Shown here: piece after piece, positions 15,791 through 26,138 of the stretch
Layout: the number at the start of each line of letters is the position of its first letter
Position numbering within the stretch: position 1 is the first letter of the stretch
Assembly: GCF_000092105.1 (NCBI RefSeq)
Contig: NC_014148.1
Location: forward strand, 1,830,001-1,862,000
Source: Planctopirus limnophila DSM 3776
GTDB taxonomy: Bacteria > Planctomycetota > Planctomycetia > Planctomycetales > Planctomycetaceae
DNA: 32,000 nt
Reading direction: 5' to 3'
The notes under the pieces: generated by a model
The model's input: the letters and a program-made list of their open reading frames with translations, nothing else
Told to the model about the DNA's origin: nothing
Database searches by the model: none
Translations under genes and position numbers: made by a program

Positions 15791-18277
15791 GTGGGGCAAT
15801 TCGAGGTGATCGGATCAAAGAATGGCACTCAATTGTTAAAGACCCATCAGCAGGTATCATGGCGCTTCATTTTTGTAAATCTCATCGTGTTATGGGCTAT
15901 GCAATGGGGTGCTGCTAAGCCTGCCTTATCGGCCGAAACCGAGAGTGCAGCCTGGCCTGGCCTGCATCCACTTACTGCAGCACAAGTGGGTAGTCTGCTG
16001 ATTCATGAGTTGAAGTGCGGAGCCTGTCATACTGGGGTTGAGAGCGGAAGGATCTCCGAAAAGACCGCTCCCGATTTGACGAACGTGGGGGGGCGAGTCT
16101 CCCCAAAGTATCTCCAGGAGTTCATCGCACATCCCGCTCAAAAGCATCCCGGGACAACGATGCCTGATCTCCTGGCATCGCGACCTGAAACTGATCGCAC
16201 AGCGATCGCAGAGGCTATTACCCAATTTCTGGTGGATCAATCCAAAGAAAAGTCTCTGCCAGCAGCAGGCAGCCAGTTCGATCAACTGCGTGGAAAAACT
16301 CTCTATCACTCCATAGGTTGTGTTGCCTGTCATGGCCCTCGGGAGGTCTTCGAGCAAGTCTCTGAGAAACCGAAGGAAACGGATGACGATTTCGATGATG
16401 AGCCCGAAGATCATCGTGAAAAGCGAGTCCAGCCAGTCGCTTTCGGTCTTGATCATGTCCGAGAGAAATACAACGTCGCTTCGCTGAGTCAATTCCTGTT
16501 TGCACCGCTGCATGTTCGTCAGTCAGGGCGCATGCCTGATATGAAACTGAAACCCGACGAAGCTTTGTCGATAGCGGCCTATCTGGTCGGAGATAGTAAG
16601 GTCGACGAATCGTTAAAAACCGACGAACGTCTGGTGCACCGTGGACGACAATATTTTCAAGAGCTGAATTGTGCGGCTTGTCACTCTCTCCCTGGTATCA
16701 CTGCAGCCAAGCGAGTGAATCGTCTATCAGAAACCAGCCTTTCCCGTGGTTGTTTGACGGGCAAGGGCGGGAAATCTCCACGATATGCTGTGAGTCGGGA
16801 GCAGCGTCTTGCCATGGAGTTGTTCATCAAGGAGTCTACAAAAAGCGATTCTCCTCCTGTCATTGATACGGATCAGGTCGCCATTGCAAAGACACTTGCG
16901 ACATTTCACTGCATTGCGTGCCATACCCGCGATGATTTCGGAGGGGTACCTGATATCTACAATATGTTTTTCACGGGGAACGACTTGAAGCTGGGGGACG
17001 ATGGGCGGATTCCACCGCCACTCACTCATGTGGGTGCAAAGTTACGGCCTGCCTGGCTCAAAAAAGTCCTTTTCGATGGTGAGAGTGTGCGTCCTTATAT
17101 GGTGACCCGCATGCCTCAGTATGGAGAGCTGAATATCGGCCATTTGCCCGAGATGTTTGCCAGTGTGGATCATCTTCAAGGGAAAGACCTCACGATTCCT
17201 GATGTCGAGGGAGCTAAGCCACAGGACCGAGAACGGGAGAAACTTTTGCGACAGGCTGGTCGGGAGTTGTTAGGAGATAAAGGTCTCAACTGTATTGCCT
17301 GCCACAGCTTTAATGGACGATCTTCTCAGGGAAGCCAGGGAATTGATCTGCTCACAAGTTATCAGCGGCTCCAGCCACAGTATTTTGATAGCTATTTAAG
17401 AAATCCAGGCTCCTTTCGTCCTCGAACCGTCATGCCTACGGCGTGGCCGAATGGAGTTGCGACGTTTACCACCATTCTTGACGGAGAGACAGACCACCAG
17501 ATTGAAGCGATCTGGTACTATTTGTCACTGGGAACCTCTGCCGCGGACCCATCAGGTTTGCGAAGTGTTAACACAAAGTTGGTTGTGGATGGTTCAAAGG
17601 CCCAGATTCATCGTGGCAGGAGTCGTATCGCCGGTTATCGCGGCATTGCTGTCGGCTTGCCAGAAAGGTGGAACTACGCATTCAATGCAGAAACAGGGAC
17701 GATTTCCGGAATCTGGAAAGGGGACTATATTCAGGTGAACTGGAGTGGCCAGGGATCGGGTGATTTTCAACCTGCGACTGAAGCCGTCACCCTCCCGCAG
17801 GATGTCTCTTTTCTGCAATTCGAAGGCGAACCAACTGTCTGGCCCAGAATGCCTGTCATGACGAAAGAGGCTCGCACAAACCCTGATCCACTCTATCCGA
17901 AGAACGTCGGTTATCAATTTCGAGGCTATACTTTAGATGAAGATCACATTCCTACATTCTCATATCGATCTGGTGCCGTTGATATCTTTGATCGCACACA
18001 GATACTGGGAGATCCTGGTAACGAACGCTTGCAGCGGATCTTCCGGTTTGAATCGCCGACGACTCAAACGTTGTGGTTTCGCGGGTTGGCAGGGAAAATC
18101 ACCAAGGAGGATTCGCAAACCTTTCGTTTGGGAAACCTTCGATTGTCTATTCCTGAGATCCCATTCCGACTGCGAGAAATACCAGATCAAGCCGGCGAAG
18201 TCGAACTCCTGATACCACTTCAAATTTCTCAAGGCCAATCGACTTTGGAGGTGAATTATGAATTACTTTCAAAGTAG
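15791..18277 (+). CDS. Membrane-anchored or secreted multiheme c-type cytochrome (5 CxxCH) with an uncharacterised C-terminal domain
   Basis: 828-aa ORF with five heme-binding motifs: CGACH, CVACH, CAACH, CIACH, CIACH. Hydrophobic N-terminal segment WRFIFVNLIVLWAMQWGAA. The ~250-aa C-terminal region has no motif I recognise. The start is a GTG and uncertain. It lies 60 nt after the esterase gene. Confidence 0.8.
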   Translation: MGQFEVIGSKNGTQLLKTHQQVSWRFIFVNLIVLWAMQWGAAKPALSAETESAAWPGLHPLTAAQVGSLLIHELKCGACHTGVESGRISEKTAPDLTNVGGRVSPKYLQEFIAHPAQKHPGTTMPDLLASRPETDRTAIAEAITQFLVDQSKEKSLPAAGSQFDQLRGKTLYHSIGCVACHGPREVFEQVSEKPKETDDDFDDEPEDHREKRVQPVAFGLDHVREKYNVASLSQFLFAPLHVRQSGRMPDMKLKPDEALSIAAYLVGDSKVDESLKTDERLVHRGRQYFQELNCAACHSLPGITAAKRVNRLSETSLSRGCLTGKGGKSPRYAVSREQRLAMELFIKESTKSDSPPVIDTDQVAIAKTLATFHCIACHTRDDFGGVPDIYNMFFTGNDLKLGDDGRIPPPLTHVGAKLRPAWLKKVLFDGESVRPYMVTRMPQYGELNIGHLPEMFASVDHLQGKDLTIPDVEGAKPQDREREKLLRQAGRELLGDKGLNCIACHSFNGRSSQGSQGIDLLTSYQRLQPQYFDSYLRNPGSFRPRTVMPTAWPNGVATFTTILDGETDHQIEAIWYYLSLGTSAADPSGLRSVNTKLVVDGSKAQIHRGRSRIAGYRGIAVGLPERWNYAFNAETGTISGIWKGDYIQVNWSGQGSGDFQPATEAVTLPQDVSFLQFEGEPTVWPRMPVMTKEARTNPDPLYPKNVGYQFRGYTLDEDHIPTFSYRSGAVDIFDRTQILGDPGNERLQRIFRFESPTTQTLWFRGLAGKITKEDSQTFRLGNLRLSIPEIPFRLREIPDQAGEVELLIPLQISQGQSTLEVNYELLSK

Positions 18278-19787
18278 TTCCTCGATGATTATCGTCGCTT
18301 TGTTGACGATCGGATTTTCATATGTTCACTCAGTTTCTGCAGAGGAAGTTGGTGAACGCTGGGGCACGGAAGAGCGAGAGCGGGCCTATTATCCCATTGT
18401 CAATATTCCACTCCCCAAAGAGACCGTTATCGAAGCCGGGGCCTTTGCGACACTACCTGATGGTCGTGTCGCCGTTGGAACACGCCATGGCGAGATCTAT
18501 ATCATTGACGGTATTGACGATGAAAAGCCGAATCCAAGGTTTCACCGTTTCGCCTCGGGGTTGGATGAAATTTTCGGGCTCTCTTGGAAAGACCAGTCTC
18601 TTCTCGTCACCCAAAGCTGCGAACTGACTCGTGTGAGTGATTCCGATGGCGATAGAATCGCTGATCGTTTTGAGACGATTTCTGATGCCTGGGGCTATGC
18701 GAATTATCACGAGTATGCATTTGGTTCGAAGCCGGATTCCGCGGGAAATCTGTTTATCGCTCTTGGACTTTCGGAGTCTTACCACTCTTATGCACTCAAT
18801 CGCGGTTTCATTATGAAGGTGGCTCCTGATGGAGCGACGACAGCTTTCGCCAGCGGTTTGCGAAGTCCCGGCGGAATTGGTCATGATGAGCATGGGGCAT
18901 TGTTTTATATTGAAAGTCAGGGTCCCTGGAACTGCTCATGCAGCTTGAAGGCGGTTACCAAGGGGAGCTTTCACGGGCATCCGGCGAGTTTTCCGTGGTA
19001 TAAGACGGCTCCAGAACTGGGCCCTGTCCCAGTGATGCCTACTTCTGGTACAAGAGTCGTTACTGAACGTCAACGCGTAGCACAACTTGCCCCCTACGCC
19101 GTGATTTTTCCGTATATTCGCATGGGCCGGTCGATTACCGCTTTCACGGTCAATCAGACTCGAGGAAAATTCGGCCCATTTGAAAACCAGTTATTTCTCG
19201 GTGACTACACACAATCAATCGTCATGCGGGCCACGACGGAACAGGTCAAAGGAGTATGGCAAGGAGCCTGCTATCCCTTCCGGGAAGGCTTATCGACGGG
19301 GATTCTCAGCGTCGAATTTACGCCTCAAGGCAAGCTGTTAACTGGTGGTACCAATCGCGGCTGGCCTGTTCGAGGTATCAAACCTTTCGCTTTGGAGCGA
19401 ATTGAGTGGAATGGGAAAATGCCATTCGAAATTGAACGGGTGACGATCGAGCCTGAAGGGTTCAAACTGACGTTTACAAAACCTCTTAGTCAAGAAGTCG
19501 GACAACTGCCAGAATCTTATAAAGTCTTCGGTTTCACGCATCCTTACCATGCTGGCTATGGAGGACCGGAAATCGAAAAACATCAGCCAATGATGCAATC
19601 AGTTGAAATTTCCCCAGACGGCAGTTCTGCGAAAATAAAAATTGATCGACTTCAACCTGGATTTGTGTATGAGTTAGATTGTTCAAGGCTACGTTCAATC
19701 GATGACGAATCTCTTCTTCATCACCATGCCTTTTATACAGTGAATGAAATCCCCGATAAGGTCGGTGATGTTGTGAATGGGAAATAG
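18258..19787 (+). CDS. Secreted beta-propeller protein related to the sugar-dehydrogenase/'membrane-bound dehydrogenase' fold
   Basis: GGAGG lies 6 nt upstream of ATG 18258. Signal peptide ...LLTIGFSYVHSVSAEE. Repeated propeller-like blades are present (GLRSPGGIGHDEHGALFYIESQGPW, DSDGDRIAD). It overlaps the upstream cytochrome gene by 20 nt, so it is likely translationally coupled. Confidence 0.7.
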   Translation: MNYFQSSSSMIIVALLTIGFSYVHSVSAEEVGERWGTEERERAYYPIVNIPLPKETVIEAGAFATLPDGRVAVGTRHGEIYIIDGIDDEKPNPRFHRFASGLDEIFGLSWKDQSLLVTQSCELTRVSDSDGDRIADRFETISDAWGYANYHEYAFGSKPDSAGNLFIALGLSESYHSYALNRGFIMKVAPDGATTAFASGLRSPGGIGHDEHGALFYIESQGPWNCSCSLKAVTKGSFHGHPASFPWYKTAPELGPVPVMPTSGTRVVTERQRVAQLAPYAVIFPYIRMGRSITAFTVNQTRGKFGPFENQLFLGDYTQSIVMRATTEQVKGVWQGACYPFREGLSTGILSVEFTPQGKLLTGGTNRGWPVRGIKPFALERIEWNGKMPFEIERVTIEPEGFKLTFTKPLSQEVGQLPESYKVFGFTHPYHAGYGGPEIEKHQPMMQSVEISPDGSSAKIKIDRLQPGFVYELDCSRLRSIDDESLLHHHAFYTVNEIPDKVGDVVNGK

Positions 19788-19843: not shown

Positions 19844-21259
19844 TCCTCAGCGGGGCCGCGCTTGGTTAGCGCGGAAGACGCCATGGATCAGAGCTTCAGC
19901 CAAGAATGTTCAATCGCTTCAATGGGGCCGCGCTTGGTTAGCGCGGAAGACTTCCCGATCCGCAACCCGCCAGCGCCAAGAGGAAGAGGCTTCAATGGGG
20001 CCGCGCTTGGTTAGCGCGGAAGACACGACCGTAGCAATCGCAACGCATGACAATGCAAAGCTTCAATGGGGCCGCGCTTGGTTAGCGCGGAAGACTCGAT
20101 CAATGCGGCGTAAACGACATCTCCTTGCCGCGCTTCAATGGGGCCGCGCTTGGTTAGCGCGGAAGACGTTGTCGATCTCATACACTTCCACCAGCGAGAA
20201 TGGCGGCTTCAATGGGGCCGCGCTTGGTTAGCGCGGAAGACCGCGCGATCCGGCAGAGGAATCCATGTTTTTCAGAGAGTGCTTCAATGGGGCCGCGCTT
20301 GGTTAGCGCGGAAGACTGCCCTGTCGGGCCGAATATCCAGCCGAATGGGGTGCTTCAATGGGGCCGCGCTTGGTTAGCGCGGAAGACCGGAGGTTTGATG
20401 CTGCGGCAATCCATTTTAGTTCAGTGCTTCAATGGGGCCGCGCTTGGTTAGCGCGGAAGACACCGCTTTGATCGAAGCGCCTGTGGCTGTCACATCTGCG
20501 CTTCAATGGGGCCGCGCTTGGTTAGCGCGGAAGACTTTGCAAACTATCTGTCATGTGTGAAGACCAGATTTTGCTTCAATGGGGCCGCGCTTGGTTAGCG
20601 CGGAAGACCTGTCGTTCTGCAGAAACTGATGAGGCATGCCGACATGCTTCAATGGGGCCGCGCTTGGTTAGCGCGGAAGACGTCATGCTTCCACAGCTTA
20701 CGGATGCCCTGCTGACGCTTCAATGGGGCCGCGCTTGGTTAGCGCGGAAGACGTTGCTGCGGTTCCGGTTGCGGTGCGGGCAGCCACCGCTTCAATGGGG
20801 CCGCGCTTGGTTAGCGCGGAAGACGCAGTTCTCAACGTGATTGCAGCATCTGTCCAATTACGCTTCAATGGGGCCGCGCTTGGTTAGCGCGGAAGACCCT
20901 ATTTGCTGGCTATGCTTCAAGCTGTAGAAACTATGCTTCAATGGGGCCGCGCTTGGTTAGCGCGGAAGACACTCTCGGTCGACGCCGCTTAGGTCAGGAG
21001 TCACCAGGCTTCAATGGGGCCGCGCTTGGTTAGCGCGGAAGACCCGGCCCGACAATCGCACCGCTGGCGTCGATTGTTAGCTTCAATGGGGCCGCGCTTG
21101 GTTAGCGCGGAAGACATCAACAGCCAAAAATCATCATCTCTAGTCTTTACGAGCTTCAATGGGGCCGCGCTTGGTTAGCGCGGAAGACACGATCACGAAT
21201 TCACCATCTACATCAGCAATCTCGCTTCAATGGGGCCGCGCTTGGTTAGCGCGGAAGAC
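19844..21259 (-). CRISPR. CRISPR array with 20 repeats and 19 spacers
   Basis: The 36-nt repeat on the plus strand is GCTTCAATGGGGCCGCGCTTGGTTAGCGCGGAAGAC. By my reading there are 19 identical copies, starting at 19916, 19989, 20060, 20132, 20206, 20281, 20352, 20426, 20500, 20573, 20646, 20717, 20789, 20862, 20935, 21008, 21080, 21153 and 21224. One degenerate copy at 19844-19879 has TCCTCAGC as its first 8 nt instead of GCTTCAAT. Spacers are 35-39 nt and all different. On the minus strand the repeat reads GTCTT-CCGCGCT-AACCA-AGCGCGG-CCCCATTGAAGC: a 7-bp hairpin followed by an ATTGAAGC 3' end. The cas genes are on the minus strand and the degenerate repeat is at the far end, so I infer minus-strand transcription. 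Confidence 0.97.
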
Positions 21260-21637
21260 CGCCCGTGTTCCAAGTCGCGGAGAGTAAAGACTTTAAGAGG
21301 CCTGTTTCGAGAGGTAGCATTTCTAGAGAACTTAAAATGTCCGTTATGATGTGATTGATTTTATAACTCCTTATACCAGAGCCGGTTAACTGTTGCGAGC
21401 GATTCCGGGGTTTTTCGTGGCACTGAACCTCTCGATTCAGAGATTGTGAAAAAAACTTGGGGAAATCAGAGAAAGGTCATCTCGCGTTTGCAGAGCATTC
21501 ATGGGTATGCGCGTGAAATTGTCGCCGGATGTTTGGAAAAAGATCGTTTCAACGTATCCGCGTTTTGTATCAGAATGAACCAGCTTCGAAAACAGAATTA
21601 TATTCTTGTTCCAGAAAAACATTTACTAAATCAAACG
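21260..21637 (-). promoter_or_regulatory. Putative CRISPR leader
   Basis: 378-bp non-coding gap between the cas2 stop (21638) and the newest-end repeat (21259). It contains an AT-rich stretch (about 21290-21400) directly adjoining the first repeat. The leader role is inferred from position only. Confidence 0.6.
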
Positions 21638-21967
21638 CTAAATCACAAAGGCCTTTCGTTCGGGAATTTCGGTTCTTGGATTGCCCCAGAACTCGACGCA
21701 ATCGTCGCCGCGAGCGCCTGCCGGTCCAAGATCGACCACCATCACTCGATCTTCCACAAGATTGAGGATTTCCCACAAACCCTCTTTCAGCGACATCAGC
21801 TGAAGCTTTGAAAGTTCGCATCGAAAAACAGAGTATTGCAATGAAGTGCCAAATCCGCAGAGTTTACGATGAGTTAAACGTAATCTCTTGGCATCGGAAA
21901 CATCGTACGAAATCAAATAGACATTTTTCATTGGTGTTCTCTCTGAGAAGCCAGTCAAGCGGATCAT
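21638..21967 (-). CDS. cas2: CRISPR-associated endoribonuclease Cas2
   Basis: ...MKNVYLISYDVSDAKRLRLTHRKLCGFGTSLQYSVFRCELSKLQLMSLKEGLWEILNLVEDRVMVVDLGP... is a typical Cas2 ferredoxin-fold pattern (YDV/I near the N-terminus, QxSVF). The ATG at 21967 overlaps the cas4-cas1 stop by 1 nt (TAATG). The true start could instead be the internal MKNVYL 12 codons later. Confidence 0.9.
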   Translation of the reverse strand: MIRLTGFSERTPMKNVYLISYDVSDAKRLRLTHRKLCGFGTSLQYSVFRCELSKLQLMSLKEGLWEILNLVEDRVMVVDLGPAGARGDDCVEFWGNPRTEIPERKAFVI

Positions 21968-23811
21968 TAACGAGTGCAGAAGCCAGGATATTTATCGAGT
22001 TCGCCAAGTAGAACTCGGGAAAGTAAGCGAGCCTGGACTTCAAAAAGCCGGCGGTAGCTGATCTTGTAGCCGAAGATGGGGTGCGTAATCTCGGTTTCCA
22101 TCCGCCGCTCATAAGCGGCAATGACGGCTTTGCGACCTGTTTCTGTCAAAGCGACGCTTCCTGCACGACGGATAAAGCTTTTTGGGCTGACTTCCTCGTT
22201 GTTAATGAGCGTAAGCACTGTTGAGTCTCCCACGAGCGGACGGAACTCTTCGGCAAGATCAAGTGCTAAAGAAGGTCTGCCATAGCGAGGCTGGTGCAGA
22301 AATCCGAGGAATGGATCGAAGCCGACAGCTTGTGTCGTGATCGTCAACTCTTTGGTTAACAGCGAATAGACAAAAGATAGAAGCGCATTGACGGGATCGG
22401 TCGGAGGGCGGCGATTACGCCCTTCGAGATTGAACTCATCTCCACCTCTAAGCAATCTGGAAAATCCTGCAAAATAGGTCTTCGCAGCCATTCCCTCCAG
22501 GCCCATGAGAGAATTCAAATTATCGACCTGCTCGACTTTCTGAATGTAATCAGCAAGGCGGTCGAGATCGCTTCTATGCTTGTCGTCAGCGTGTCGCCTT
22601 AACAGTGTGCGTGAGTTTTTGATCTTTGCAGAAATGAAACCACGCGCTATCGACAGGGCGGCCTGAGGATCAAAAGCCGCCTTCGACTGGGCCATGCGCA
22701 ACTCGACGTTTTTGTGGCACATTCCCGAAGTGAGTGCCGTGAACCATCCGCCGTAGGAAAAGTAACTGATGGGGATATTGCGGTCCGCCAGTTCTCGAAT
22801 TGCAGCGGCTGTGACCTGCACATTCCCCATCAGGCAAACTTGTGAAACTTGAATGAGTGGAATGAACAGTGGAGAGGATTTCGCGGGAGTCAGTTTCAGA
22901 CGCTCGCCATCTTTGCCTATATAGGTTCCTTGATCCTGAACATAAATTGGCAGTGCATCGTCACGGGCGGGAACAAGTTTGCGGATACTTTCCGAGCTCT
23001 CTGGAGCCGAATCTTCCCTGGTGCTATTTCTAAGGCAATTGGTTTCATCGGGGAGGCAAATGCTGACAAGAGAACATTTCGGACATTTGGGGCTATCAAC
23101 AAGCGGGGCGGGAATCTGGCGTGTGGAGGCCATGTGCCGCATTTCGCGAACCAGTTCGCGCGTGCGGGCAATCAGGGTGTCGTCAAATTGAACACGAATC
23201 CGGCGTCGGGATTCGATGTAATACAATTCGCCATAGTCGCATTCGTAGCCATTGGCCTTCAGAATCAAGCCTTGAGCACAAAGTTGAACCCGTTCTGGTT
23301 CCCAAGCCTGGTGAGGAACATCGGGAACGTTCCCTCTTTTGTAGTCGATCGGGACTGCTTTCGAACCTTTCAGTTCAATCAGATCAAGTTTGGCCAGCAA
23401 TCCTTCAGAGGGTGCAGAGAGCATCAAAGCCCGAGCCGCCAAGCTGTCGGCTGTGATCTCCTGGATTGCAGAACCTTCACTGACATGGTGAGAAGATTCG
23501 TCTGGGTTTTCATCAGGAGCATCGAATGATTTTTTGGTGGGGATATCCACATTTCGATGTCCGAATGTCCCTTCTTTGGTCTCGATGTTGTCTCGAAACT
23601 CACCTTGCACCCATTCAAGGTAAGCCAGTCTGGGGCAGTAGGTGAATTCGTTGAGCATACGAGCGGGAATAAGATCATCAGCCGACTGTGACTGATTTTC
23701 TCCTTCCCCTGTGAAGAGCGCTTCGAGATCGAGAGAAGGTGGGCCGGGGACAGGGCTAATCATGATACGACGCCTACTGAAGAAGGAATCGTCCATGACG
23801 AACGCTAGCAA
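21967..23811 (-). CDS. cas4/cas1: Cas4-Cas1 fusion protein (RecB-like nuclease with a 4Fe-4S cluster, plus Cas1 integrase)
   Basis: The N-terminal Cas4 part has NEFTYCPRLAYLEW (first cluster Cys), the nuclease core KLDLIEL...PIDYKRG, and CPKCSLVSIC (C-x2-C-x5-C). The Cas1 part has LPIYVQDQGTYIGKDGERLKL, GLEGMAAKTYFAGF, NRRPPTDPVNALLSFVYSLL and GFLHQPRYGRPSLALDLAEEFRP. The ORF-track start at 23811 is a TTG. ATG candidates lie at 23796 and 23763. Confidence 0.92.
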   Translation of the reverse strand: MLAFVMDDSFFSRRRIMISPVPGPPSLDLEALFTGEGENQSQSADDLIPARMLNEFTYCPRLAYLEWVQGEFRDNIETKEGTFGHRNVDIPTKKSFDAPDENPDESSHHVSEGSAIQEITADSLAARALMLSAPSEGLLAKLDLIELKGSKAVPIDYKRGNVPDVPHQAWEPERVQLCAQGLILKANGYECDYGELYYIESRRRIRVQFDDTLIARTRELVREMRHMASTRQIPAPLVDSPKCPKCSLVSICLPDETNCLRNSTREDSAPESSESIRKLVPARDDALPIYVQDQGTYIGKDGERLKLTPAKSSPLFIPLIQVSQVCLMGNVQVTAAAIRELADRNIPISYFSYGGWFTALTSGMCHKNVELRMAQSKAAFDPQAALSIARGFISAKIKNSRTLLRRHADDKHRSDLDRLADYIQKVEQVDNLNSLMGLEGMAAKTYFAGFSRLLRGGDEFNLEGRNRRPPTDPVNALLSFVYSLLTKELTITTQAVGFDPFLGFLHQPRYGRPSLALDLAEEFRPLVGDSTVLTLINNEEVSPKSFIRRAGSVALTETGRKAVIAAYERRMETEITHPIFGYKISYRRLFEVQARLLSRVLLGELDKYPGFCTR

Positions 23812-24063
23812 CCGCCGAAAGCCGGGCGGCCCCCGAACTTCAACCAGATTATCAAAGAGCAGATGTTGCCCTGGACTACTGGCGAAAAATCAGTAGGTAC
23901 AGTATGGGCAGTCAGTAACCAGCGTTGTAAAGATCAGAAAGTGAAAAATCAATAAACTTTTCTCAGACCGTCAACTTTATGTGTGGTTGGTGGAAATGAA
24001 TTCAGTATTAAGATCGCTAAATGTTTTTGGTTTAGGCTCCTCTGTCGCTGGTCACTACAAGAT

Positions 24064-25047
24064 TCAGTGCAGTGATCTCGCGGAGACTTGTGAGGCTTTG
24101 ACAAAGCTCTCGCCTCTACTGGATATTGCCCGCGCTATGGCCTGCTGCACACTCATGGGATTGATCGAAAAGACTTTCAAAGCTTGAGTGTCTTGAACCA
24201 CAGTAGGGTTCTTCAATCCTTCAATGAGATGGCGACCAACTTCGTAGGTGGCCGGGGTGACGAGGGCGAGCCAGAGACCGGAAAGATAAGGCGTCAAGAT
24301 TGGCACAAAGATCAGCCATCGATGCAGGCCTTGTTGCCGGGCGTACTCGCGGATCAAGTCGCCATAAGTAACAATATCGGGACTGCCAATCTCGAAGATG
24401 CGGCTATCGCCTGTTGGCAAGTCTTTCGCGGCGGAAAGATAAGCCAGTACGTCGTCAATCGCGATGGGTTGAGTGGGAGTGGCCAGCCAGCGAGGGCAGA
24501 TCATGACAGGGAGTCGATCTGTTAACGATTTCATCAACTGGAAGGACAGACTCCCCGCTCCGATGACCATCCCGGCTCGAAATTCAATCGTTTCGATACC
24601 CGACGCCTGTAAGATCTCGCCCACCTCGTGACGACTCCGCAGGTGCGGAGAGAGTTTGTGGTCGTTGTCGTCACCGAGCCCGCCAAGATAGATAATTCGC
24701 TTGACGCCGGTTCGCCTGGCAGCGTCCGCGAAGTTTTGAGCTGCCTGGCGGTCTAGCTGCTCGAAGTTAGCCGATCCCGACATGAGATGTACGAGATAGT
24801 AAGCTGTGTGAACGCCTTCAAGGGCTGCATCTAAAGAAGCGGGATTCAGGACATCGCCTGGAACAATCTCAGTCGTATGCTTGATGAGAGGTCGTAATTT
24901 GGCTGGGTTGCGTGCCAGACACCTCAGAGTTAAGGGTTGTGCCTCAAGCAGCGGGAGCAGTCGCCCGCCGACATACCCAGACGCTCCCGTCAGCAGAACG
25001 GTATTCTCAGAAACGACTTGAGGCTTGTTGACTTCGGTGGACGGCAT
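24064..25047 (-). CDS. NAD(P)H-binding atypical SDR / NmrA-like family oxidoreductase
   Basis: 327 aa with an ATG start. Rossmann motif VLLTGASGYVGGRLL near the N-terminus, then ...AYYLVH...RIIYLGGLG..., as in NDUFA9-like atypical SDRs. Confidence 0.8.
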   Translation of the reverse strand: MPSTEVNKPQVVSENTVLLTGASGYVGGRLLPLLEAQPLTLRCLARNPAKLRPLIKHTTEIVPGDVLNPASLDAALEGVHTAYYLVHLMSGSANFEQLDRQAAQNFADAARRTGVKRIIYLGGLGDDNDHKLSPHLRSRHEVGEILQASGIETIEFRAGMVIGAGSLSFQLMKSLTDRLPVMICPRWLATPTQPIAIDDVLAYLSAAKDLPTGDSRIFEIGSPDIVTYGDLIREYARQQGLHRWLIFVPILTPYLSGLWLALVTPATYEVGRHLIEGLKNPTVVQDTQALKVFSINPMSVQQAIARAISSRGESFVKASQVSARSLH

Positions 25048-25797: not shown

Positions 25798-25922
25798 CGC
25801 ATGTCGATACCCCACTGGCTGGAGCAGACCAGCGGGGCAATGAAACGGTCGCTGGTGGGACGTTTGTCAGGAACACCTTCAAAAAGGTGGTTTCACTGCA
25901 GCAGTCCTAGAAGTTTCGGACC

Positions 25923-25980
25923 GCAGGGTGGCCCCGGTTGAAAGTCTGATTTCTACCGGGGTGGCTTCACCACAGGAGGG
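25923..25980. repeat. Direct repeat, copy A (upstream of the toxin-like gene)
   Basis: GCAGGGTGGCCCCGGTTGAAAGTCTGATTTCTACCGGGGTGGCTTCACCACAGGAGGG matches 29921-29977 with only 3-4 mismatches. It contains an internal inverted repeat CCCCGGT (16-nt loop) ACCGGGG. Confidence 0.85.
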
Positions 25981-26138
25981 CATTGGCAGAACCTTATCTC
26001 AGGCAGAGTTCTTTCTGAGATCCTCAGAAACTCACATGGCAGTTCTTTCGGCAGCAAGACCTCCACTGCCTGCGGCACACAGGTAGCCCGCCGACGGCCA
26101 AACTGTATCAGAATGCGATCTTCAATCCCGAGACCGGG

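Follow-up and report, generated by a model that had tools for sequence, protein, structure and literature searches.

A putative type I-G CRISPR-Cas system divided between two distant chromosomal sites in Planctopirus limnophila

Which effector, if any, does an array serve when only adaptation genes stand beside it? The question is raised by a CRISPR locus in Planctopirus limnophila (source genome G000, with chromosome C1 and second replicon C2), located within a window of 32,000 nucleotides that constitutes the whole stretch analysed (C1:1,830,001-1,862,000). The locus comprises an array, a cas2 gene and a cas4g/cas1g fusion. No effector gene was found in the whole 32-kb window, in which only cas2 and cas4/cas1 resemble cas genes, so the profile searches bear out the first-pass annotation, which had been made from the letters alone and had seen no effector on either flank. 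That annotation offered three explanations: interference provided in trans by an effector operon far away, an unrecognised effector, or a decaying locus caught early. We consider it highly probable that the locus is the adaptation-and-memory half of one type I-G system whose genes lie at two chromosomal sites.

The candidate second half is an intact, array-less effector operon, WYL-cas3g-cas8g2-cas7g-csb2 (G000:C1:4,068,905-4,076,349, plus strand). It lies 2.22 Mb from the array and the cas4/1-cas2 genes, on the same chromosome and on the opposite strand, and supports the first of the three explanations. The operon has no internal stops. It encodes Cas3g (G000:C1:4,070,047-4,072,749, plus strand; TIGR02621, 637 bits against a cut-off of 400), Cas8g2 (plus strand; TIGR04106, 424 bits against 125), Cas7g/Csb1 (plus strand; TIGR02570, 170 bits against 38) and Csb2 (plus strand; TIGR02165, 497 bits against 45). 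An HTH-WYL-WCX regulator, recognized by its Pfam domains, is encoded on the same strand 44 nt upstream of cas3g. Csb2 is a Cas5-Cas6 fusion, and together with Cas7g/Csb1 and the large subunit Cas8g2, all three full length and free of stops, it makes up a set of proteins expected of subtype I-G. Cas3g retains the sequences GLGKT, DEAH and QRFGRVNR (helicase motifs I, II and VI) as well as an HD region at its C-terminus, as expected of an I-G Cas3g. No solved structure was matched by the Csb2 sequence, so the published catalytic His503 could not be mapped here; a C-terminal HYGLGLF motif is conserved in both types of Csb2 described below (those of G000 and of its sister species G001). No array was found within the 20 kb examined around this operon.

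The rest of the genome offers no competing partner among the families searched. The assembly is complete (two contigs, 100% completeness, 5,460,085 bp in total including the second replicon of 37,010 bp), and it holds one array, one Cas1, one Cas2 and one Cas7g (172 bits, C1:4,073,676). The published genome table also lists 'CRISPR repeats 1' (PMC3035269). Whole-genome profile tests took in Cas1, Cas2, cas3_core, Cas7g, RAMP and Csm1, and not Cas9, Cas12 or Cas13. The RAMP family had no match anywhere in the genome. The Cas10/Csm1 model matched a single 85-aa open frame (G000:C1:161963-162133, plus strand; model positions 228-282; 38 bits, below cut-off), and no other type III component occurs in the genome beside this scrap. 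Generic cas3_core matches were rejected as extra effectors because they are ordinary helicases below cut-off, the Cas3g gene itself excepted. Ten other k-mer clusters were considered as arrays; the four largest are tandem repeats (periods of 18, 51/102, 89 and 95) without unique spacers, and the remaining six are each a single 3-copy cluster, seen as k-mer counts alone. With one array, one adaptation set and one effector set, all of the same subtype, the locus is therefore not effector-less. The first-pass annotation had proposed a genome scan for further arrays and Cas profiles, and had noted that an I-G effector operon elsewhere would make this a split locus; the scan returned a single array, a single I-G effector set and hence that outcome.

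On the adaptation side, the array (window 19844-21259, minus strand) has 20 repeats, of which 19 are identical 36-nt copies of GTCTTCCGCGCTAACCAAGCGCGGCCCCATTGAAGC, and 19 unique spacers of 35-39 nt. To the 19 perfect repeats and 19 spacers already counted in the first pass, we add a degenerate terminal repeat at the trailer end (repeat 20; 19844-19879, minus strand), which departs from the consensus at four positions, every one of them within its last 8 nt. This repeat and the downstream flank of the array are the same in the sister species G003. Between cas2 and the first repeat is the leader (21260-21637, 378 bp, minus strand), and its final 60 nt ahead of repeat 1 are nearly identical among G000, G003 and G001. 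The cas2 gene (21638-21931, minus strand) encodes 97 aa (PF09827, 52.8 bits; TIGR01573, 31 bits). The cas4g/cas1g fusion (21967-23811, minus strand) scores 757 bits against a cut-off of 560 with NF049935 (cas4g_cas1g). The protein aligns over its full length with the Cas4/Cas1 fusion of Geobacter sulfurreducens (PDB 7MI4, 537 bits), with conservation of the Cas4 Cys, D/E/K and CxxC...C motifs and of the Cas1 E...H...E motifs, so that the inactivating lesions in Cas1 catalytic residues that would have marked a relic are absent. The profile score and the alignment together place it in the I-G clade of Cas4-Cas1 fusions, and with the I-G effector set and the protospacer adjacent motif (PAM) described below, they substantiate the earlier guess of subtype I-G. 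The open reading frame (ORF) opens at a TTG (23811); since homology begins only at about residue 45, the real start is likely an ATG further downstream. In DNA run X1, four low-depth contigs lie over cas4/cas1 at ~98-99% identity, and nothing lies over the array.

In the fold predicted for the repeat (-12.3 kcal/mol, z = -2.8), nt 6-24 make up a 7-bp stem, after which come CCCC and then AUUGAAGC. The predicted fold thus has the features of an I-G repeat, namely a length of 36 nt, a 7-bp stem, 4 nt and an 8-nt 5' handle. In Thioalkalivibrio sulfidiphilus, the I-G Csb2 cleaves 4 nt 3' of a 7-bp stem to leave an 8-nt handle (PMC9638904). The predicted geometry here matches this published processing, with AUUGAAGC as the putative handle, and the resemblance noticed in the first pass, a 7-bp hairpin ahead of an 8-nt handle, agrees with it.

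Contiguous relatives join the two gene sets. The order cas3g-cas8g2-cas7g-csb2-cas4/1-cas2-array is seen in G005 and G009, which are complete genomes of the same family but of other genera, with a WYL gene ahead in G005 only. Their proteins are 35-66% identical to those of both halves here (Cas7g 65%, Cas4/1 57%), and what sets their repeats apart is mostly compensatory change within the stem, while the ATTGAAGC end is the same.

The spacers provide a third line of evidence. Spacer 1, which is leader-proximal and the newest (21189-21223, minus strand), matches 34 of 35 nt at G000 C2 17735-17769, with the 5' flank TTC. This target lies on the strain's own 37-kb replicon. Spacer and target differ once, at spacer position 7, and the base concerned is the third of codon 11 in a 74-aa ORF. 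C2 (37,010 bp) was published as a plasmid. Its genes include those for a large terminase, for portal, major head and tape-measure proteins and for a ParB-like protein, and nearly all of them lie on one strand; on these grounds C2 is a phage-plasmid. A relative of C2 occurs in G003 (C124, 38,083 bp, ~85% identity over ~30 kb), and spacer 4 (20971-21007, minus strand) matches it in 35 of 37 nt (G003:C124 31338-31374, 5' flank TTG). Spacers 8, 19 and 29 of G001 match the 37-kb element of G000. All five independent protospacers, on these two related phage-plasmids, have 5'-TTN on the spacer-sense strand (TTC, TTT, TTC, TTC and TTG), which is the PAM given for type I-G in PMC9638904, where Almendros et al. 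2019 is cited for it. The side on which 5'-TTN occurs also confirms the direction of array transcription. The first-pass annotation had suggested comparing the spacers with phage and plasmid sequences to derive a PAM. The PAM could be derived in this way; INPHARED phages gave no spacer match, and PLSDB plasmids gave only chance-level Rhizobium matches. Relatives of the phage-plasmid terminase in IMG/VR are at most 48% identical and carry no protospacer, and 120 genomes of the family contained related repeats only and no further protospacers. Judging from the contiguous relatives, the repeat geometry and the PAM, the two halves appear to fit each other.

The same division is present in three species (G000, G003 and G001), in the same two genomic contexts. 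In G003 (94-95% nucleotide identity), the array-cas2-cas4/1-SDR side and the effector side (vWA, WYL, cas3g to csb2 and the downstream gene) are both colinear with G000, with protein identities of 92-100% across both sides. In G001 (85-92% nucleotide identity), the adaptation side is the same, with Cas4/1 94% and Cas2 97% identical, and the repeat is identical and present in 59 copies. No spacer is shared between any two of G000 (19 spacers), G003 (4 visible) and G001 (58). The ratio of nonsynonymous to synonymous substitution rates (dN/dS) against the sister species is 0-0.03 for cas2 and 0.06-0.07 for cas4/1 (dS up to 0.51), and among the effector genes it is 0.07 for cas7g, 0.13 for cas8g2, 0.20 for cas3g and 0.23 for csb2. 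Both halves are under purifying selection (dN/dS 0-0.23). The shared sites, identical repeats, different spacers and purifying selection show that the split is old and maintained.

A fourth genome, the complete genome of G002, lacks both halves, although the flanks are 93-94% identical. At the site of the adaptation half, ~300 bp remain between the flanking genes, in which a single decayed repeat and 109 nt from the 5' end of cas4/1 survive. At the effector site, the WYL gene is kept, and after it come fragments for the N-terminus of Cas3g and the C-terminus of Csb2, both of G000 type. With remnants left at both sites, the one lineage without the system lost its halves through separate deletions. 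This joint loss suggests that neither half is kept in the absence of its partner.

A mosaic of synonymous divergence was observed between G000 and G003. The dS values are 0.22-0.23 for cas3g and cas7g, 0.04-0.06 for cas8g2 and csb2, and 0.05-0.08 for cas2 and cas4/1, against 0.15-0.24 for flanking genes. This pattern points to recent exchange between lineages, by recombination, of some portions of the system.

Several observations weigh against the reading of one working system at two sites. The halves lie on different contigs in G001 and G003, and their separation in these species is deduced from synteny with G000. A simple scan found no sigma-70 consensus promoter in the leader or 5' of cas4/cas1, although planctomycete promoters are poorly covered by the sigma-70 scan used. 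A further difficulty is that spacer 1 and its near-perfect, TTC-flanked target coexist in the same cell, as they might if interference were off. The halves might then be related by descent and not cooperate at present, with acquisition continuing while interference, repressed by the WYL regulator or otherwise inactive, is off in this strain. The position of that regulator just ahead of cas3g is in keeping with such a state. Against it, the effector genes are intact and constrained (dN/dS 0.07-0.23), and G002 lost both halves together. Position 7 of the spacer belongs to the seed in type I-E systems; to our knowledge, the I-G seed has not been mapped. If a comparable seed applies here, coexistence also looks like escape from an active system. 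The combination of spacer and mismatched target is what would be expected of an escape variant facing such a system and is also compatible with interference being off, and we regard it as suggestive only. The seed interpretation rests on one mismatch, and about one in five random positions would fall in such a seed. WYL repression or an anti-CRISPR could account for the coexistence in place of evasion at position 7. Overall, we judge present inactivity of interference to be an unlikely explanation, though the strongest of the alternatives.

Much less can be said for a decaying relic, in which the adaptation module and the array were left behind after loss of the effector, before mutations could build up. 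The absence of an effector within 32 kb is what such a relic would show, and deletion of the locus did occur in G002. However, the repeats are perfect and the catalytic motifs intact, dN/dS is 0-0.07 at a dS of 0.5, three species carry wholly different spacers behind an identical leader and repeat, and a matching effector operon is present in the genome. An orphan or degenerate locus would lack a cognate effector or carry decayed repeats or genes, and here the effector was found and such decay was not. The earlier suggestion of decay caught early is contradicted by purifying selection, full spacer turnover and a split kept in three species, and we consider it very improbable. Least credible of all is that the array serves an unrecognised effector nearby or elsewhere, an idea that draws only on the effector-free flanks and is made unnecessary by the cognate I-G operon, with flanking genes that are ordinary, a repeat family that is that of canonical I-G loci in related genera, and a PAM that is the I-G PAM.

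If the two sites do form one I-G system, its operation can be outlined as follows. The Cas4/Cas1-Cas2 proteins would select prespacers beside a 5'-TTN PAM and insert them at the leader end of the array. The array would be transcribed on the minus strand into a precursor CRISPR RNA, and the Cas6-like domain of Csb2, encoded 2.22 Mb away, would cut this precursor 4 nt past the 7-bp stem, leaving the 8-nt handle AUUGAAGC. Csb2, Cas7g, Cas8g2 and Cas3g could then form an I-G Cascade that finds and degrades TTN-flanked targets. We infer that Csb2 from the distant operon processes this array, and the Cascade-Cas3g complex would currently interfere with TTN-flanked targets. The cas4/1-cas2 genes may be transcribed from their own promoter or through read-through from the neighbouring SDR gene.

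The split falls exactly between csb2 and cas4/cas1. In contiguous relatives, the distance from the end of csb2 to cas4/cas1 is 0.3-0.5 kb. This junction carries inserts of 2-8 kb in G013, G023, G035 and G036, and in T. sulfidiphilus five genes are inserted there (PMC9638904); it is a known weak point of such loci. A single inversion, from the csb2|cas4-1 junction to the junction between the SDR gene and a gene for a 1069-aa protein, would restore a contiguous locus on one strand. A symmetric inversion was considered as the origin and is not supported, as its midpoint (2.97 Mb) is near neither the GC-skew maximum (2.08 Mb) nor the minimum (~4.2-5.1 Mb). The two junctions share neither a repeat nor a mobile element, and the contiguous loci of G005 and G009 occupy unrelated genomic contexts. 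Another arrangement was seen in G037 (same class, two contigs), where the only csb2 sequence adjoining a cas4g/cas1g gene (C1:723400-726192) is a partial match; more copies of csb2 are found at distances of 1.9 and 2.9 Mb (C1:2672647-2674323 and C1:3687774-3689342). This may be another split or multiple I-G arrangement.

The effector site of G001 differs from that of G000. The WYL gene and both flanks are conserved, and the cassette between them encodes Cas3g (796 bits), Csx17/Cas8g1 (710 bits), Cas7g and Csb2. The two Cas3g proteins are 27% identical, and Cas8, Cas7 and Csb2 have no tblastn match between the species at E <= 1e-5. DNA identity between G001 and G000 breaks off within the final ~50 nt of the WYL gene and returns within the final ~50 nt of csb2, and the ends of the recombination fall in these two segments. 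In other genera (G013 and G036), Csx17-type loci are contiguous with cas4/1, and their repeats share the ATTGAAGC handle, ahead of which stands CCCC in G013 and CTCC in G036. G001 has swapped in a Csx17-type cassette, and since Csx17 loci elsewhere use the same handle, the swap is plausibly compatible with the same array. A broader possibility, which we put forward tentatively and hold to be doubtful, is that array and Cas4/1-Cas2 form a fixed memory locus for I-G effector cassettes that can replace one another at a second, WYL-controlled site. If this were true, keeping the halves physically apart would allow one effector to take the place of another, for instance in evading anti-CRISPRs, with no loss of stored spacers, and a single repeat would be read by two highly dissimilar Csb2 proteins.

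Upstream of cas4/cas1, a 252-bp gap (23812-24063) forms the present boundary of the adaptation half; it has no csb2 homology and no dispersed repeat. Beyond it is an NmrA/SDR-like gene (24064-25047, minus strand), in line with the gap of about 250 bp and the SDR gene described in the first pass. The propeller protein reported past the distal end of the array proved to be a DUF7133-like (propeller-type) ORF of 509 aa (18258-19787, plus strand). The neighbours in the window are ordinary genes, including cytochromes, the DUF7133 protein, the SDR gene and a polymorphic toxin. The last of these is a 997-aa protein (26139-29132, plus strand) with a pretoxin-HINT domain and a C-terminal HopBF1-kinase-like domain (NF035942, 51 bits, below cut-off), and by its domains it looks like a polymorphic toxin. 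An element of ~185 nt (25921-26107) recurs dozens of times in the genomes of the sister species G002 and G004. Near the effector operon, a large inverted repeat with 18-bp arms lies 3' of csb2 (G000:C1:4,076,350-4,076,790). These arms are members of a family of short, dispersed, REP-like sequences, which has ~35 short matches along the chromosome and many copies in G002.

Compared with known systems, the gene families are those of the I-G system of G. sulfurreducens (formerly I-U; GSU0051-0058 type, cas3g-cas8g2-cas7g/csb1-csb2-cas4/cas1-cas2-array), all above cut-offs, with the same TTN PAM and a Cas4/Cas1 alignable over its full length. Unlike in G. sulfurreducens, the operon is cut between csb2 and cas4/cas1, with the parts far apart on opposite strands. 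The I-G system of T. sulfidiphilus (Shangguan et al. 2022, PMC9638904) has a 36-nt repeat with the same stem and handle geometry and is also interrupted between csb2 and cas4-cas1, but by a few kb within one locus, as opposed to 2.2 Mb here. It has a Csx17-type Cas8g, whereas G000 has the short Cas8g2; the sister species G001 has Csx17. In many type III loci, and in III-G and IV-A3, effector modules rely in trans on adaptation genes or arrays located far away (Makarova et al. 2025, PMC12669027). The effector operon here likewise lacks its own array and cas1/cas2. Those modules usually borrow from another type, whereas here one subtype is divided and no second system is present. Semi-independent adaptation and effector modules, and arrays used in trans, are established ideas (PMC12669027), and the locus belongs to a I-G system in an unusual though understandable layout. 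What remains of most interest is that effector cassettes appear to have been exchanged at one constant, WYL-controlled position, with the memory locus left in place.

Automated pipelines will score one half as an orphan array accompanied only by adaptation genes and the other as an effector operon standing alone; the two should be taken jointly as one I-G system. The strain is genetically tractable (PMC4910669) and carries its own targeted phage-plasmid, so function in trans, seed escape and effector cross-compatibility are directly testable in it. Within and around the genus, the loci form a series that is contiguous in neighbouring genera, stably split in three species, altered by a cassette swap in one and lost jointly in another, and this series shows how independently the adaptation and interference modules evolve.

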